Source: Candidatus Nanobsidianus stetteri | GTDB taxonomy: Archaea > Nanobdellota > Nanobdellia > Nanobdellales > Nanobdellaceae | NCBI GenBank assembly: GCA_000387965.1 | Contig: APJZ01000004.1 | Location: 6,136-38,135 of the forward strand | DNA: 32,000 bases | Direction of reading: 5' to 3' | Shown: positions 8,222 through 32,000 of the stretch, one piece after another | How positions within the stretch are numbered: position 1 is the first letter of the stretch | Layout of the letters: every line of letters begins with the position of its first letter | Notes under the pieces: generated by a model | Told to the model about the DNA's origin: nothing | Databases searched by the model: none | What the model saw: only the letters and a program-made list of their open reading frames with translations | Program-made: the position numbers and the translations under genes

Positions 8222-9865
8222 TTATAGATTTTTTATATAGTTTAATATTTCTTTAATTGAAAAAGGCTCTCCAGAATGTTTTAATAATCTATTTTCAATT
8301 TCAATTCCCAATTCTTGTCTTATTAATTTTGATAATTGTCCAGTTAAATTATGCTCGATTGATACTATTTCTTTTGATTCTTCTAATAAATATTTGATTT
8401 CTTTTGGAAATGGAGATAGATAAGATATATGCAAATATTTCCAACCTTTTAAATATTTTAACGATTCTAATATTGGCATCTTATTTGAACCCCAAGAGAC
8501 AATTAACTTATTTCCTTCCCCATATATTTGATATGGTTCGAATTCTTTTATTTCCTTTTCAATTGATTCTAATTTTTTCATTCTCTTTTCACTCATTTTT
8601 TGTCCAATTTCATGATTTTCTGTTTCTATACCAAATTCATCATGTTCATATGATGATGCTTTTACAATCGCATCAAAACCAGGTATCGCCCTTAATTGAT
8701 AACCCTGATCATTTATTTTATAATTTTGATAATTCTTTGGAGGTTCTAAATCTATATATCTTGATATTTCTATATTTGGTACATATATATAATCAAAATT
8801 CATTTTTGATTCTCCTAAAAATAGATCTGACAATAATATTACTGGATTATTAAATTTATATGCGATATGGAATGCTTCAATTGTCTTTTCAAAAGCTTCT
8901 GCAGGATCTCCAGGTGCAATAACAATTCTAGGAAATTCCCCATGGCCAATATTTAATGCTTCTAATAGATCTGATTGATCTGTATGTGTTGCCATACCTG
9001 TTGAAGGTCCATATCTCTGAGCCCAGTAAATTACTAAAGGAATTTCTGACATACCTGATAAACTAATTGCCTCTGCCATTAAATCTATACCACCTCCAGA
9101 AGATCCAACCATTACTTTTGCACCCGCATAAGATGCTCCTAAAGCAATATTAATTGCACCAATTTCACTATCAGGTTGATATGTTACAATATTATATTTA
9201 TCCCTTAAAGATGCTAAAATATGTAAAACTGGAGAAGCGGGAGTCATTGGATATGCAATATATATATCTAAACCGGCAGCAATTGCTCCCAATGCAACTC
9301 CTTCGGAACCAGATAAATAAAATTGTTTCTTATATATTCTTTTTTCTATATTTTCTTTACTATTAATATTTAAATCATTATAAATTATATCAATTAATTT
9401 TAATTCTTCAGGATCATTTATTCTTTTTTCAAATACATCCTTAACTATTTCTTTATCTATATTTAAATATTTAAAAAATGCTAATAAGATAATTGTATTC
9501 CCATATTTTTTATCAACATTATATTTTTTATAATAATAATCTAAATCTACATCAATTTTTTTATTATATACAACATTTTTTGGTCCAATTATTAATCCAT
9601 TTTCCTTTAATTTTTTACTATGTAAATTTACGGTATTTTGATCAAATGCAATTATATAATCAAAATCTTCAAAATATGGGGCATATATTTTTTCTTTAGA
9701 TATACTAATAATATTATAATTATGTCCTCCCCTAATTAAACTCATATACCATCTATAATTAAATACATTGTATCCCAATTTAATGAATACCCTTGATATT
9801 ATATCTGCAGTAAAATCAATTCCCTGACCAGCCTGACCACCTATTAAAATATTTAGATCTACCAT
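8222..9865 (-). CDS. 2-oxoacid:ferredoxin oxidoreductase, fused gamma-alpha (alpha) subunit
   Basis: The N-terminal gamma-type domain (ILIGGQAGQGIDFTADIISRVFIKLGYNVF...IRGGHN) is fused to an alpha-type domain (SGSEGVALGAIAAGLDIYIAYPMTPASPVLHILA...GSSGGGIDLMAEAISLSGMSEIPLVIYWAQR.GPSTG). This is the two-subunit Sulfolobus-type architecture. Confidence 0.85.
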   Translation of the reverse strand: MVDLNILIGGQAGQGIDFTADIISRVFIKLGYNVFNYRWYMSLIRGGHNYNIISISKEKIYAPYFEDFDYIIAFDQNTVNLHSKKLKENGLIIGPKNVVYNKKIDVDLDYYYKKYNVDKKYGNTIILLAFFKYLNIDKEIVKDVFEKRINDPEELKLIDIIYNDLNINSKENIEKRIYKKQFYLSGSEGVALGAIAAGLDIYIAYPMTPASPVLHILASLRDKYNIVTYQPDSEIGAINIALGASYAGAKVMVGSSGGGIDLMAEAISLSGMSEIPLVIYWAQRYGPSTGMATHTDQSDLLEALNIGHGEFPRIVIAPGDPAEAFEKTIEAFHIAYKFNNPVILLSDLFLGESKMNFDYIYVPNIEISRYIDLEPPKNYQNYKINDQGYQLRAIPGFDAIVKASSYEHDEFGIETENHEIGQKMSEKRMKKLESIEKEIKEFEPYQIYGEGNKLIVSWGSNKMPILESLKYLKGWKYLHISYLSPFPKEIKYLLEESKEIVSIEHNLTGQLSKLIRQELGIEIENRLLKHSGEPFSIKEILNYIKNL

Positions 9866-14875: not shown

Positions 14876-16533
14876 TGGTTATTTTAGATGTATCTTTAAA
14901 TGAATTATATAAACTATTAAATAAAAATTTATCTGAAGAAGAATTAAATGAATATTTGTTAAATATAAAATGCGAATTGGATGAAATTGAAGGAAATAAT
15001 GCGAAAATTGAAGTAAAAGATTTTAATAGAATTGATCTATATAGTTTATCTGGAATTGCTAGAGAATTAAAGGGAATATTAAATATTGAAACTGGTATCC
15101 CAAAATTTGAAATAAGAGATTCTAATTATGATTTAATTGTTGATAAAGAAATATTGAATGTAAGACCATATATTGTTGGTGCAATTGTTAAAGATGTAAA
15201 ATTAAATGAAGATAGATTAAAAGATTTAATACAATTACAAGAAAAAATATCACAATCTTTTGGAAGAAATAGGCAAAAAGTTGCAATTGGTACACATAAT
15301 TTTGATCTGATTAAATTTCCTGTTTATTATAAATTAACAGATCCTGAAACAAGATTTATTCCTTTGGGATTTAATAGAGAATTATCTTTAAGAGAAATTT
15401 TAGAAAATACAGAAGCTGGTAAAAAATATTCATATATTTTAAATAAATATAATAAGTATCCAATATTAATTGATTCGAATAATAATATTATTTCATTTCC
15501 ACCAATAATAAATTCAAATAAAATTGGAAGGCTAGATATTAATACAAGGAATATTTTCATAGATGTTTCTGGTACAGATTTAGAAAAAATACTATTAGCA
15601 TTAAATGTAATTGTATTAGCATTAAAAGATTTCGGAGGGGAAATATATTCAATTAATGTAATATATCCGGATAAAAAAATTAAAACGCCAGAATTAAAGG
15701 TTATTAAAAAGGAAATGGATTTAAATAAAATTAAAAAATATTTGGGAATAGAATTAGATAGTAATAAAATTATTGAATATTTAAATAAAAAAAGAATGAA
15801 TGCAAAAATTGAAAATAATAAATTAATCATCGAATATTTAAATTATAGGGATGATATATTATCTGAATATGATATAATTGAAGAAATATTGATTTCTTAT
15901 GGATATAATAATTTAAAACCGAGGGAAATTAAAGTATATACAAAGGGAGAATTAAGTAGAGAAAGAAAGATTATGAATAATATAAGAAAGATAATGGTTA
16001 ATATGGGATGTATAGAAATATACACTCCAATATTATCTAATAAGGATATAAATAGTTTATTAAATGAAGATAGAGAAATTATTGAATTAATAAATCCAGT
16101 ATCCTCATCTTATAATTCAATTAGAGGATATTTATTATCATCTTTCTTACAATTATTATCTGAAAATAATGAATTAAAGTTCCCTGCGAAAATATTTGAA
16201 CTAAATAGAGTTTCATATATTAAAGATAATAAAATCATTGAAGATCTAAATTTATTATATATTTATTCTGATTATGAAGTTTCTGTGAATAATTCGTTAA
16301 AAGTATTAAAAAGATTATTTAAAGAATTAAAAATTGATTTTGATATAAGAAATTCAAATCATAAATTTTTAATAGATGGAAGACAAGGAGATATATTCGT
16401 AAATAATGAAAATATTGGATGGATTGGGGAAATTGATCCAAATATATTAGAAAAATTGAGTATAAAATATCCATTAACTGGTTTTGAAATAGGTATAAAA
16501 AAATTGATGAAATATATTAAATATGATATCTGA
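14875..16533 (+). CDS. pheT: phenylalanyl-tRNA synthetase beta subunit (archaeal type)
   Basis: ~550 aa, with B3/4-like and B5-like regions (RPYIVGAIVKDV, QEKISQSFGRNRQKVAIGTHNFD, ISFPPIINS). It lies immediately upstream of pheS and overlaps it. Confidence 0.9.
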   Translation: MVILDVSLNELYKLLNKNLSEEELNEYLLNIKCELDEIEGNNAKIEVKDFNRIDLYSLSGIARELKGILNIETGIPKFEIRDSNYDLIVDKEILNVRPYIVGAIVKDVKLNEDRLKDLIQLQEKISQSFGRNRQKVAIGTHNFDLIKFPVYYKLTDPETRFIPLGFNRELSLREILENTEAGKKYSYILNKYNKYPILIDSNNNIISFPPIINSNKIGRLDINTRNIFIDVSGTDLEKILLALNVIVLALKDFGGEIYSINVIYPDKKIKTPELKVIKKEMDLNKIKKYLGIELDSNKIIEYLNKKRMNAKIENNKLIIEYLNYRDDILSEYDIIEEILISYGYNNLKPREIKVYTKGELSRERKIMNNIRKIMVNMGCIEIYTPILSNKDINSLLNEDREIIELINPVSSSYNSIRGYLLSSFLQLLSENNELKFPAKIFELNRVSYIKDNKIIEDLNLLYIYSDYEVSVNNSLKVLKRLFKELKIDFDIRNSNHKFLIDGRQGDIFVNNENIGWIGEIDPNILEKLSIKYPLTGFEIGIKKLMKYIKYDI

Positions 16534-17923
16534 AATAGAATATAAAGTATTATCTATATTAAACGATAATTGGAAAAATTTAGATGAGATTTCAAATGAA
16601 TTAAATATTGATAAATATAAAGTGTTAAGGACTTTAGGCTTTTTAAGGGAAAAAGAATTAATAGAATTAAGAGAAGAAAAAATAAAAAGATATGAATTAT
16701 CAGAAATTGGAAAAAAATATTTAAAGGAAGGATTACCTGAAAGAAGATTATTAAATTTATTAAAAGAAAAGAAAGAATTAAATTTGGAAGAATTAAATGA
16801 ATATTTTAATAAAGATGAATTATCCTTCTCTTTAGGATTTTTAAGAAAAAATGGGGCAATAAAAATTGAAAATGGAAAAGTAATATATATTAGAGATATA
16901 GAAACATATGAAAGATATTTAGAAAATATTGATGAAAATACAATAAAATTATTTAAAGGAAGAAAAGGAATTATTGAAGAAAAAGAAGAAACAATTTATT
17001 ATGCAAAAATAAATGATAAAGGAAAAGAAATATTAAAAAATTATAAACCAGAAGAATATATTGAAAAATATACAAAGGAAGTTATTGATAAAAAGATATA
17101 TAAAAATAAAAAATTTAGACCATATGATATAAGGATAAATATTGAGGAAGAAAATATTGGAAGATATAATCCATATTTAGAATTTTTAGATAAAATAAGA
17201 GAAGAATTAATATCAATGGGATTTAAAGAAATGGATAAATATAGTATGATAGTATCACATTTTTGGGATTTAGATTCTTTATTTATACCACAAGACCATC
17301 CTGCAGGAGATATTTCAATAATGGATGCATTTTATATTAAAAATATACAATATATAGAAGATTTTCCAAAAGATTTATTTGAAAATGTTAAAAATACTCA
17401 ATTAAAATATTTTAAGATATTTGATGAAAATATTTCAAAAAGAACTATGTTAATATCTCATGATACTGCTATATCTGCAAAAACATTATTAAATGCAGAA
17501 AAACCTGGTAAATATTTCTTAATAGAAAAAGTATTTAGATATGATACAATTGATGCTAAACATTTTATTGAATTTAATCAACTTGAAGGAATTGTTTTAG
17601 ATGATAATTTAACATTTTTAGATTTATTGGGAATATTAAAAGAATTGGTATTAAATGTTGTAAAAGCAAAAAATGTAAAATTTTATCCGGCATATTTTCC
17701 ATTTACAGAACCTTCAGTTGAAGTATATGCCGAACATCCAAAATTGGGATGGATTGAAGTTGGAGGTGCAGGTGTATTTAGAGAAGAACTATTAAGACAA
17801 TTTAGTATAGATTATCCAGTATTGGCTTGGGGTCTTGGTGTTGATAGACTTGCAACAATATATTTGAATATTAATGATATAAGGGAATTGCATACTAGAA
17901 ATATTAAAAAATTGCAAGAATAA
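16523..17923 (+). CDS. pheS: phenylalanyl-tRNA synthetase alpha subunit (archaeal/eukaryotic type)
   Basis: Class II motifs FRYDTIDAKHFIEFNQLEG, YFPFTEPSVEV, GGAGVFREELL and AWGLGVDRLA, plus N-terminal winged-helix repeats. It overlaps pheT by 11 nt. Confidence 0.95.
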   Translation: MISEIEYKVLSILNDNWKNLDEISNELNIDKYKVLRTLGFLREKELIELREEKIKRYELSEIGKKYLKEGLPERRLLNLLKEKKELNLEELNEYFNKDELSFSLGFLRKNGAIKIENGKVIYIRDIETYERYLENIDENTIKLFKGRKGIIEEKEETIYYAKINDKGKEILKNYKPEEYIEKYTKEVIDKKIYKNKKFRPYDIRINIEEENIGRYNPYLEFLDKIREELISMGFKEMDKYSMIVSHFWDLDSLFIPQDHPAGDISIMDAFYIKNIQYIEDFPKDLFENVKNTQLKYFKIFDENISKRTMLISHDTAISAKTLLNAEKPGKYFLIEKVFRYDTIDAKHFIEFNQLEGIVLDDNLTFLDLLGILKELVLNVVKAKNVKFYPAYFPFTEPSVEVYAEHPKLGWIEVGGAGVFREELLRQFSIDYPVLAWGLGVDRLATIYLNINDIRELHTRNIKKLQE

Positions 17924-24261: not shown

Positions 24262-25140
24262 ATGAGCATATTAATGAAAATCTTGTCTTTTATAGAAAAA
24301 AATTATAAGAAGTTTCTAATAATTTCCATATCAATATTTGTAATATTTGTTGGAATAATATTATTTAATTACTTTAAGTACGGATATATAATTAATAAAT
24401 CTATTACAATTTCCGGAGGTTATGTGACATTAATTAATAATAATTATCATATAACAAATACAGAAATACAAAATGTGTTGAATCAAATGAATATAACGGA
24501 TTATGTATTATATAATACACCAAATATTATTTATATTGAATCGGAAAAGCAAATTAATGAAACATTATTAATTAATTTATTAAATCAAGATTATAATATC
24601 AAACTATTGCCTACGGATATATCAATACAACAATATAGTTCTTTGGTAGGAAATCTTATATTTAATCAATTTTTATTCTTTGTAATTTTAGCAATGATAC
24701 TTACAGCATTTATAATATTCATAGCATTTAGAGCTTCTAAGATTACTTTAAATATAATATCTACAATATTATTTGATGTTATTGGATTATTAGCAATATT
24801 ATCTATAACAAAATATCCTATAGGAGCAAATGGATTTATTGGAATGTTAATGATTTTAGGATTTGCAATTGATAATAATGTAGTATTATCAACAAACATA
24901 GTAAAGGAAAAGGATAAACCATTTATTGAAAGAGTAAGAATGTCTTTTAGAGTTGGAATGCTAATGGAAATTATTGCATTATATACATTACTTTTATTAT
25001 ATTTTATAGTTCCAGAACCATCAGTTGATGAATTTGCATTTGTATTATCTGTTGCAATAATATTAGATTTATTATATTATCTTATTGGAAATATACCATT
25101 ATATAAATATTTTGAAGTTAAAAAAGAACAAGAAAGTTAG
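24262..25140 (+). CDS. secF: SecD/SecF-family protein-export membrane protein, most likely SecF
   Basis: One N-terminal TM helix, a ~100-aa external domain, then five or six TM helices. The conserved segment is MLMILGFAIDNNVVLSTNIVKEK (compare G.s.D..Iv..dRi.E). The ~290-aa size fits SecF. No SecD gene is adjacent. Confidence 0.55.
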   Translation: MSILMKILSFIEKNYKKFLIISISIFVIFVGIILFNYFKYGYIINKSITISGGYVTLINNNYHITNTEIQNVLNQMNITDYVLYNTPNIIYIESEKQINETLLINLLNQDYNIKLLPTDISIQQYSSLVGNLIFNQFLFFVILAMILTAFIIFIAFRASKITLNIISTILFDVIGLLAILSITKYPIGANGFIGMLMILGFAIDNNVVLSTNIVKEKDKPFIERVRMSFRVGMLMEIIALYTLLLLYFIVPEPSVDEFAFVLSVAIILDLLYYLIGNIPLYKYFEVKKEQES

Positions 25141-25595
25141 ACATCAACAACTATTTCTGCACTCCAATAGGTTTTCATTATTTTTGTAATATTTATATCA
25201 TGTAAAGTAACTGCTTTAACTTCTTTTTTAAATCCATGTTTTTCTTTATCATATTTTTCCCCATAAACCTCAAATCTACATACCCATTTATATTTCTTGC
25301 TTTCAACTCTAACTTTTTTTAAATTTTTTACTCTTATATCTCTTACAGCAAACTTATCCTTATAAAAAACCTCTTCTAAACATATTCTAGCAACATTATA
25401 TATAATTTCTAATATATTTTTTCCTTCAATTACAAATTGTTTTGATTCTTTTTTCTCAACTTTTTCATTATCATATATAATATTAAACATTCCCAATATT
25501 AATGCCTCAATTGCTCTCTTTGGTGTATTTCCATAACCAACAATCTTTATATCTGCTGTATGGTCTTCATATTCATATTCCCTCAAAACAGTCAT
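25137..25595 (-). CDS. archease (RtcB ligase activator family)
   Basis: YEYEDHTADIKIVGYGNT...AIEALILGMFNII at the N-terminus and VKAVTLHDINI...WSAEIVVDV at the C-terminus are the archease signatures. Confidence 0.9.
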   Translation of the reverse strand: MTVLREYEYEDHTADIKIVGYGNTPKRAIEALILGMFNIIYDNEKVEKKESKQFVIEGKNILEIIYNVARICLEEVFYKDKFAVRDIRVKNLKKVRVESKKYKWVCRFEVYGEKYDKEKHGFKKEVKAVTLHDINITKIMKTYWSAEIVVDV

Positions 25596-25625
25596 ATTAA
25601 AAATATTTTTAAATAATTTTATAAA

Positions 25626-25674
25626 TCAGTAGACCGACAACTCATCATTTTTCAGATTTTTAGATTCTCATCAT
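25626..25674 (-). ncRNA. C/D box sRNA (2'-O-methylation guide)
   Basis: The reverse strand reads AUGAUGA (C, 25668-25674), GAAUCUAAAAAU (12 nt), CUGA (D', 25652-25655), AAA, AUGAUGA (C', 25642-25648), GUUGUCGGUCUA (12 nt), CUGA (D, 25626-25629). All four boxes match consensus and both spacers are exactly 12 nt. It is intergenic. The true ends probably extend a few nt beyond the boxes. Confidence 0.8.
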
Positions 25675-25714
25675 AAAAGATAAATATATTAAAATTTTTA
25701 AATAAATATATTTT

Positions 25715-26221
25715 ATGGAAATATTGGATATAAAAATACCTGACAATGCAATAAAAGTAAATATATATTCAAGTTCCTTTAGAGATTTGGAAAAAATACC
25801 AAAGGATTATACATGTGAAGGAAAAAATATATCATTTCCAATAGTAATTGAAGAAATACCAAATAATACAAAAAGCATGTTATTATTTGTAGAAGATCCA
25901 GATGCACCTGGGGGTATATTTAGACATTGGATTGCATATATAAATAAACCAATAAAAAGTATACCTCCAGGAATTAAAAAGGAAAGAATTGTTAAAATAG
26001 ATGATGTACAAATTATTCAGGGTAAAAATGATTTTGGAAAAATTGGATATGATGGTCCATGTCCTCCAAAAGGTCATGGTAAACATAGATATTATACAAT
26101 AATATTATTTCTAAATAAAGAATTATATATAGACGGGTGGTTCTTTGAAGATTTTATTAGATATGTAAAGGAAGAAAATATTGTTGGATATGGATATTTT
26201 ATAGGAATATATGAAAGATAA
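25715..26221 (+). CDS. phosphatidylethanolamine-binding protein family (YbhB/YbcL-type)
   Basis: VEDPDAPGGIFRHW and GYDGPCPPKGHGKHRYYTIILFL are the PEBP signature motifs. Confidence 0.9.
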   Translation: MEILDIKIPDNAIKVNIYSSSFRDLEKIPKDYTCEGKNISFPIVIEEIPNNTKSMLLFVEDPDAPGGIFRHWIAYINKPIKSIPPGIKKERIVKIDDVQIIQGKNDFGKIGYDGPCPPKGHGKHRYYTIILFLNKELYIDGWFFEDFIRYVKEENIVGYGYFIGIYER

Positions 26222-31083: not shown

Positions 31084-32000
31084 ATTTTATTTATATGCAA
31101 TAAAAAGGTTAATTAAGAAAATATTGAAGAAGATTCTATAAATTTTTATAACTCAAATCTAGAATTTGTTTTAAACTAATTTTACTTTTAATATAAATAA
31201 AAAATATTTATATTATTTTTAGTGTTTTAAGTTAAAAAATCTCCAATACAATTTAAAAATATTTTTATTGATTTTTTACTTCATTTTCTAAGATTACAGA
31301 ATTTAACATTTTATAACCAAAATAATTATATAAATCTCAAATTTTTCCTAACTTAAAGCTTCGTTGAAAATAAAAAGTTCGTCAAAAATACTGTTAATTA
31401 TCTATACTAAAACTATTTCTATTTATAGTACCTAAAACTTTTAAAATTCCATCAACATAACCTTTTATTGGATTGTAGATTTATCATAGTTCAGTTCAAG
31501 AAAATACTAATTAGTATCGATTATTCCACAATTCGGTGCTCTTTAACTTGTTGCATCTAAATCTCTATACAAAAAATACATAGTTTTGATAAAACTTAAT
31601 GCTATAATGAGAACTATTATCCATACTTTTGTATTAATTACATTACATTTATCTGATTTCATCCAATAATTTAATAACATATTACCATTAAAATCGTTAA
31701 ATCCTATATCAACAAAATCAGATCTTATTTTATCTTGTAGTATCAAAGATCTCCTATTTAGATTTACTAATATTTGATAATCTGTCAAGTTGTTTTGAAT
31801 TAAAATATTGTCTATGATAAAACTTATCTAATATCTATGCCAAAAATTCTTCCTATCATGAATCTAAATATTTTTTACTTTTTTCTATACTAACTGTAAG
31901 AGATCCTTTATATTTCAAATTAGATGAAGACCATAATATCGTATGATATTATTTAAATTATATGTTATTATTTATCTTGTTTGTATTATATGCATGTCGA

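Follow-up and report, generated by a model that had tools for sequence, protein, structure and literature searches.

The question raised by this locus is whether the spacer between the divergent archease and PEBP genes of 'Ca. Nanobsidianus stetteri' Nst1 (Nanoarchaeota), an archaeon from Yellowstone, contains a functional C/D box sRNA gene and, if so, which RNA the sRNA would modify. Archaeal genome annotation routinely omits C/D box sRNAs. Such a gene had been read on the minus strand of this spacer in a first-pass annotation of the window, by which we mean the whole 32-kb stretch of DNA analysed here. The G+C content is 20-28% in the window and about 23% in the Nst1 genome; the archease protein encoded in the window is identical on JGI contig OBNano_10004 and in GCA_003086415.2, and the PEBP gene is Nst1_514 on contig C4 of the Nst1 assembly (Podar et al. 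2013). The description of the sRNA gene as unannotated holds for the published gene table, which includes tRNAs, rRNAs and RNase P RNA and has no sRNA entry; however, the same paper already states that Nst1 has 'putative snoRNAs', predicted with Snoscan (Podar et al. 2013). In the literature that we searched we found no treatment of the C/D box sRNAs of Nanopusillus, Nanobsidianus or Nanobdella.

The C/D box motif

From 25674 to 25626 the minus strand reads AUGAUGA-GAAUCUAAAAAU-CUGA-AAA-AUGAUGA-GUUGUCGGUCUA-CUGA (49 nt), which is exactly the arrangement of four boxes and two 12-nt spacers that had been claimed. Its parts are as follows:

25668..25674, minus strand: box C, AUGAUGA, a perfect match to the consensus
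25656..25667, minus strand: D' spacer, GAAUCUAAAAAU, 12 nt
25652..25655, minus strand: box D', CUGA, consensus
25649..25651, minus strand: D'-C' linker, AAA (k-loop)
25642..25648, minus strand: box C', AUGAUGA, consensus
25630..25641, minus strand: D guide, GUUGUCGGUCUA, 12 nt
25631-25639, minus strand: conserved core of the D guide, UGUCGGUCU
25626..25629, minus strand: box D, CUGA, perfect and invariant in all homologues

The predicted target core of the D guide is 5'-AGACCGACA-3', in which the C opposite G25634 (N+5) would be methylated. The D guide has a G+C content of 50% over its 12 nt, and its 9-nt core one of 5/9 (56%), compared with 0-3% in the flanks.

When both strands of the window were searched with a strict four-box pattern (RUGAUGA, 10-14 nt, CUGA, 1-12 nt, UGAUGA, 10-14 nt, CUGA), there was one match, against none in 2000 dinucleotide-preserving shuffles. 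The string UGAUGA occurs 25 times in the window, and CUGA follows at +11 to +13 only for the pair at the sRNA locus. A relaxed scan with up to two box mismatches again returned this locus as its sole match, with no match in 40 Markov shuffles. The claim that it is the only convincing locus of its kind in the window therefore stands. Allowing three box mismatches added one weak match within the POR gene. This C/D-like string (8593-8643, minus strand, with three box mismatches and spacers of 13-14 nt, inside the pyruvate:ferredoxin oxidoreductase gene) is most likely due to chance.

At the gathering level, an Rfam scan of the window returned tRNAs only. In a local scan by E-value the locus scored 24.7 bits (E=7e-4) with sR5 (RF01304) and 22.4 bits with snoPyro_CD (RF00095), both below the respective gathering scores of 40 and 45 bits. 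The box arrangement and spacing of the two families align end to end with the sRNA, but the guides are unrelated, and the sRNA is not a member of either family. Its predicted secondary structure has no terminal stem and no other fold (z = 0.17), as reported for the sRNAs of N. equitans. The likeness to the N. equitans C/D sRNAs (PMC3491384) extends to their size and layout (50-60 nt; C, ~12 nt, D', 3-4 nt, C', ~12 nt, D; no terminal stem) and to genes that are packed against or overlap their neighbours; some of these sRNAs, too, are without a predicted target. However, nothing similar to UGUCGGUCU is found among the 26 N. equitans guides, most of which have clear rRNA targets, whereas the guide in the window has none (PMC3491384; see below). 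The proteins with which such an sRNA would act are encoded by Nst1: the published gene table, from which we took their presence, lists Nop56/58 (Nop5) as Nst1_027, fibrillarin as Nst1_028 and L7Ae as Nst1_339 (Podar et al. 2013), so the check for these three genes that the first-pass annotation proposed comes out in its favour.

Conservation in close relatives

We reached syntenic loci through archease homologues and compared their PEBP-archease spacers. The sRNA is found in this spacer in N. stetteri QEFP02, N. acidilobi CP010514.1, AP031373.1, JBMFJD01 and Nanobdella aerobiophila AP019769.1, and all four boxes are invariant in these five loci. The D guide among these close relatives is GUUGUCGGUCUA, AAUGUCGGUCUA, AUUGUCGGUCUU or UCUGUUCGGUCUC; N. 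stetteri, N. acidilobi, AP031373 and JBMFJD01 share the same core, UGUCGGUCU, into which Nanobdella has one U inserted. In the homologues the D spacer measures 12-13 nt and the D' spacer 10-12 nt; the D' spacers of AP031373, JBMFJD01 and Nanobdella are rich in A/U, 10-11 nt long and unrelated in sequence. Even near-identical strains have three alleles of the D' spacer (12 vs 11 nt; G/A): in an alignment of 125 columns, comprising the PEBP-archease spacer and both flanking start codons, only three columns vary among these strains, and two of the three fall in the D' spacer. Because sequence and length of the D' spacer vary freely, even between strains, this spacer is unconstrained. Such a pattern indicates that selection acts on the D guide but not on the D' spacer, which is probably not a working guide. 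The A/U-rich D' guide had been suspected of being an orphan, and these observations support the suspicion. The archease proteins across the sRNA-bearing genera share 54-88% identity.

Distant lineages and the position of the guide

An archease-linked sRNA is present in at least seven further lineages, and a copy in NZ13-N lies 2.3 kb from archease. Related versions occur in four lineages at 54-61% archease identity:

DAIUEN01: GUGAUGA ACUGCUUGGUCUU CUGA UUA GUGAUGA ACUGAACUGCCU CUGA
ERZ1669402: ...ACUGCCAGUCUC..., then a second spacer rich in A/U
ERZ27236680: ...CAUGUCGGUAUA CCGA ... UCCGAACUGCCC CUGA, on the strand opposite to archease and downstream of it
NZ13-N: ...ACUGCCAGUCUU..., at the distance from archease given above
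L034, 9918-9967, plus strand (DAIUEN01): sRNA locus bearing a second guide
L036, 10500-10549, minus strand (ERZ27236680): sRNA locus bearing a second guide

Box C is AUGAUGA in 8/9 lineage versions and GUGAUGA in DAIUEN01, box D' is CUGA in 8/9 and CCGA in L036 (ERZ27236680), and the D'-C' linker is 3-4 nt long in all homologues. In the MAFFT alignment the first (C-D') module of the distant versions aligns with the second (C'-D) module of the window sRNA, which reveals that the conserved guide has changed place. In the Nanopusillus/Nanobdella group it occupies the D position and in DAIUEN01, ERZ1669402, ERZ27236680 and NZ13-N the D' position, as would be expected from a circular permutation or a module swap. 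The relocation resembles the case of N. equitans sRNA24, which is permuted and circular (PMC3491384), and the guide shuffling described for Pyrobaculum sRNA families (PMC6009581).

The second guide of DAIUEN01 and ERZ27236680, GAACUGCC, forms 12 and 10 pairs, respectively, with AGGCAGUUCGGU in 23S rRNA, and the DAIUEN01 match was equalled by none of 300 shuffled guides. The nucleotide at N+5 is the equivalent of E. coli A2602 in 23S rRNA, a nucleotide of the peptidyl-transferase centre. Since the second guide matches 23S rRNA, the members of this sRNA family appear to be true methylation guides, and the target search is able to detect real targets. By the same comparison, the Nanopusillus and Nanobdella versions have lost this second guide.

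On the evidence of its motif and its conservation, the locus is a genuine, conserved single-guide C/D box sRNA gene, and the comparison with relatives strengthens the identification made in the first-pass annotation. The contrary view, that the locus is a decaying relic or a chance motif without function, could draw on the unconstrained D' spacer and on the fact that we found no target for the conserved guide. However, the strict pattern never arose in the shuffled sequences, and a guide of 50% G+C together with four perfect boxes has been kept across genera in DNA that otherwise has 0-3% G+C. We consider this view highly improbable.

A different alternative is that the RNA has a role other than guiding: the kink-turns formed by C/D and C'/D' might bind L7Ae within the promoter and 5' region that the genes share, and in this way regulate the expression of archease or PEBP, or the RNA might act as a folding chaperone. 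The persistence of the sRNA near archease across lineages would fit such a role, and binding of L7Ae to k-turns in mRNAs has been proposed in archaea (PMC5539422). This explanation is improbable, however, as the sRNA of ERZ27236680 lies downstream of archease on the opposite strand, that of NZ13-N is 2.3 kb away, and the guide sequence itself is under selection, which a pure protein-binding element would not need.

Predicted promoters and neighbouring genes

The reading as a conserved guide RNA gene raises the matter of its expression. The genes and predicted transcription signals around the sRNA are:

25137..25595, minus strand: archease gene (Pfam PF01951), beside which the sRNA gene is conserved
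25715..26221, plus strand: PEBP (PBP family) gene, divergent from the sRNA
25695..25702, minus strand: predicted box A (TATA) of the sRNA, TTTAAAAA, assigned by analogy with N. equitans
25617..25625, minus strand: predicted box A of archease, TTTATAAAA, which is T-rich and possibly also forms the sRNA 3' end or terminator
25687..25694, plus strand: predicted box A of PEBP, TATTAAAA, assigned from spacing only

The distance from the first T of TTTAAAAA down to the A of box C is 28 nt. In N. equitans the 5' ends of sRNA13 and sRNA15, mapped by RNA-seq, likewise lie 28 nt downstream of the first T in TTTATAAA and TTTATAAT (Randau 2012, PMC3491384). Because the box A spacing is the same, this analogy suggests that the sRNA has its own promoter, back to back with that of PEBP. 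The putative box A of PEBP abuts that of the sRNA and starts 28 nt ahead of the ATG at 25715.

On the other side of the sRNA, TTTATAAAA is situated directly 3' of box D, its centre 26 nt and its first T 30 nt from the archease ATG (25595). A box centred 26 nt upstream of this ATG had been claimed, and it is indeed present, at 25625-25617. The 30-nt distance implies that the archease mRNA would be essentially leaderless. The 3' end of the sRNA and the archease promoter had further been described as interlocked; they are adjacent in the species of the window, but in other lineages box D is 37-38 nt from the archease ATG, which is 7-8 nt more than in the window, and the exact overlap is thus not conserved. 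Since this gap is longer elsewhere, the exact interlocking appears to be a feature of the N. stetteri species group. Co-transcription of the sRNA with archease is possible. Taken together, four predicted transcription signals and one RNA gene are packed in 119 nt of a reduced genome. As a further case of the tight packing typical of this genome, the archease and SecF-like genes are convergent and overlap by 4 nt (window 25137-25140).

Search for a target in rRNA

To obtain rRNAs of relatives we scanned metagenome contigs with a published Nanopusillus 16S oligonucleotide and recovered more through the neighbourhoods of S19 proteins. The set consists of five 16S and four 23S sequences, among them those of Nanobdella and those on a contig whose source sample also contains the archease allele of the window. 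Ungapped and RNAduplex searches with shuffled-guide controls covered the rRNAs of L017, L025, L019, L041 and Nanobdella. The gene order at the rRNA loci L017, L041 and L040 is ProS-23S-FlaI-TadC-TadC-S19-x-Tgt-16S; in the published Nst1 table the rRNA beside ProS is labelled 16S and the one beside Tgt 23S. As the gene order places 23S by ProS and 16S by Tgt, the two labels in the table appear to be swapped.

The motif CCGACA is absent from all sense 16S and 23S rRNAs of the relatives (five 16S, four 23S), alignments of 16S and 23S rRNA from eight species do not contain GACCGAC, and AGACCGACA has no site, with one mismatch allowed, in about 250 kb of related loci, rRNA flanks included. A complement to the D guide in 16S or 23S rRNA, where the first-pass annotation suggested looking for one, was therefore not found in the close relatives, and the best duplexes between the D guide and rRNA were equalled by shuffled guides in 22-69% of trials. 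The D' spacer has no match above chance in the relatives' rRNAs.

One could nevertheless assume that the sRNA is a canonical rRNA guide whose D guide pairs with GGGAGCGACAGC in 16S or AGGACCGGUAAA in 23S rRNA through a duplex that is mismatched or rich in G·U pairs. The 23S site forms 10 contiguous pairs with the guide of the window (7 Watson-Crick and 3 G·U) and is located near E. coli 1890-1901, a known methylation hot spot in which N. equitans sRNA26 has its target; the 16S site forms 10/12 pairs at -16.3 kcal/mol. However, shuffled guides perform as well at the rate given above, the 16S duplex has a G×G mismatch exactly at N+5, and the 23S site is unchanged in Nanobdella, where the extra U of the guide breaks the register. 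Moreover, the conserved guide positions G4 and U5 would be engaged in wobble pairs. We rejected both sites as targets of the D guide and regard a canonical rRNA guide as unlikely.

Several other candidates were rejected as well. The site GAGACCGGGUGGA in Nanobdella 23S rRNA forms 13/13 pairs with the Nanobdella guide only by way of four G·U pairs in a row, and the homologous site in 23S rRNA of the Nanopusillus type does not match the guide of that group. The sequence GAGACUGCCAGG in 16S h39/40 is like the target of the ERZ1669402 and NZ13-N guides; it has a central mismatch and is unfit for the guide of the window. Among host rRNAs, Sulfolobus 16S gave partial matches only (GAGACCGCAGU), and the D-guide complement anchored at a guessed 23S site (CCGUACC...) returned nine unrelated bacterial matches in the contig scan. 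A literature search for the target string returned irrelevant primers only.

Insofar as close relatives stand in for Nst1, these comparisons would exclude a canonical rRNA target for both guides. Because the target sequence is absent from 16S and 23S rRNA, the substrate of the D guide would be a non-rRNA stable RNA, probably a tRNA or another stable RNA. The corresponding target strings predicted from the guides of relatives are GAGACCGAACAG for Nanobdella (AP019769.1), AGACUGGCAGU for NZ13-N and AGACCRRGCAGU for DAIUEN01.

tRNAs as possible targets

The following tRNA genes were recovered:

Window: tRNA-Cys, tRNA-Thr
N. stetteri and N. acidilobi: tRNA-Phe and an intron-containing tRNA-Leu-UAA
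DAIUEN01: tRNA-Thr, tRNA-Phe and an intron-containing CAU tRNA
ERZ27236680: tRNA-Cys, tRNA-Glu
Among the tRNA genes of the group: a CAU tRNA with a 28-nt intron

None of the Phe, Cys, Thr, Leu-UAA, Ile/Met-CAU and Glu tRNAs, which represent 6 of ~42 tRNA species, is a convincing target of the D guide. The UNN-decoding genes among those recovered number four (Phe, Leu-UAA and Cys twice), and each of them has A36 G37 A38 C39 C40; this sequence, AGACC, is the box-proximal half of the predicted target and would place N+5 on C39. The continuation GACA follows in none of the four. The tRNA-Phe forms 7-8 contiguous pairs with each guide variant, the best value among the six species; however, it is identical in lineages whose guides differ, which argues that it is not the selected target. 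More generally, the Thr and Phe anticodon arms are invariant between lineages with different guides, which counts against a target in an anticodon arm. Two further observations are awkward for such a target: the guides of different lineages are not equally long, the 1-nt difference falling within the pairing region, and the ERZ27236680 guide has an A instead of a C opposite the would-be G37.

Scans of IMG/VR found no nanoarchaeal sequence. Phage tRNA-Trp genes in IMG/VR contain AGACCGACA by chance, in the form GUCGG-UUCCAGA-CCGAC-A, and show only that this format exists. Position 39 of archaeal tRNA-Trp is a known C/D-guided site. Clouet d'Orval and colleagues are said to have described, in 2001, a C/D guide in the tRNA-Trp intron of Haloferax and other Euryarchaeota that directs Cm34 and Um39. 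If the target of the window guide were an anticodon arm, the N+5 rule would point to the same position 39; the window guide is a free-standing gene, whereas the tRNA-Trp guide is borne by an intron. Such tRNA-Trp intron C/D sRNAs are also mentioned in PMC3491384.

Our best guess for the target is the anticodon arm of a UNN-reading tRNA (Cm39), with tRNA-Trp and tRNA-Tyr as the leading candidates; the published table gives the positions of both in Nst1, together with their neighbouring genes (Podar et al. 2013). A more specific reading, tentative and in our estimate rather doubtful, is that the D guide, encoded by a free-standing gene, acts in trans on tRNA-Trp or tRNA-Tyr and there directs 2'-O-methylation of C39 in the anticodon arm; as such it would be the nanoarchaeal counterpart of the tRNA-Trp intron guide. 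Archease is a cofactor of the tRNA-splicing ligase RtcB. If the tRNA-Trp/Tyr reading were true, the linkage to archease would reflect coupled ligation and methylation of tRNAs, and pairing with the guide might extend across the junction at which an intron-containing tRNA is spliced.

Other observations concern the tRNA genes themselves. The tRNA-Phe(GAA) gene, reported as missing from the Nst1 assembly (Podar et al. 2013), is located in N. stetteri QEFP02000003.1 (L037 15205-15280, plus strand; also L039 near 15210-15285), at a position beyond the end of the Nst1 contig that also ends the window. The last ~900 nt of the window (31084-32000, the end of Nst1 contig C4) are unlike N. stetteri and N. 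acidilobi, in which an S11 gene and an intron-containing tRNA directly follow the DHHA1 gene; this stretch probably reflects a boundary in the assembly or a region that varies. ARAGORN missed a tRNA-Leu(UAA) whose 17-nt intron is placed at 37/38 (L037 about 17310-17420 and L039 about 17010-17125, both minus strand); the published tRNA list has introns only in the Ile and Tyr tRNAs, and Leu(UAA) is absent from it (Podar et al. 2013). The introns of the CAU tRNAs at L001 3899-3999 (minus strand) and L034 4932-5034 (plus strand) are 28-30 nt long and contain a C-box-like CGAUGAG/CGAUGGG; the tRNA-Met intron of N. equitans holds a C/D-like RNA.

Discussion

The reading that we favour, with a probability of roughly 60%, is that the locus encodes a functional C/D sRNA of about 50 nt with its own box A, which acts as a methylation guide within an RNP, whose D guide alone is selected, and whose target is a stable RNA other than rRNA. 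Transcription would begin at the A of box C, driven by the sRNA's own box A, and may end in the T-rich stretch that doubles as the TATA box of archease. Together with L7Ae, Nop5 and fibrillarin the sRNA would form the RNP, in which the D guide (core UGUCGGUCU) would direct 2'-O-methylation of the C in 5'-AGAC*CGACA-3', while the D' spacer would serve only to keep the spacing between C' and D'. The substrate may be the anticodon arm of a tRNA with A36 G37 A38 C39, giving Cm39, or else another stable RNA.

The locus is mildly unusual in three respects: no rRNA target exists for the guide that is conserved, the D' spacer serves as filler, and the guide module, though it has moved, has stayed near archease. 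What is known of the mechanism of C/D RNPs is unchanged by it. It adds one well-supported C/D sRNA gene, with orthologues in seven archease-linked lineages and one located farther off. With a guide that is under selection and has no rRNA target, non-rRNA methylation in DPANN archaea becomes accessible to experiment in the N. acidilobi and Nanobdella systems, both of which can be cultivated.
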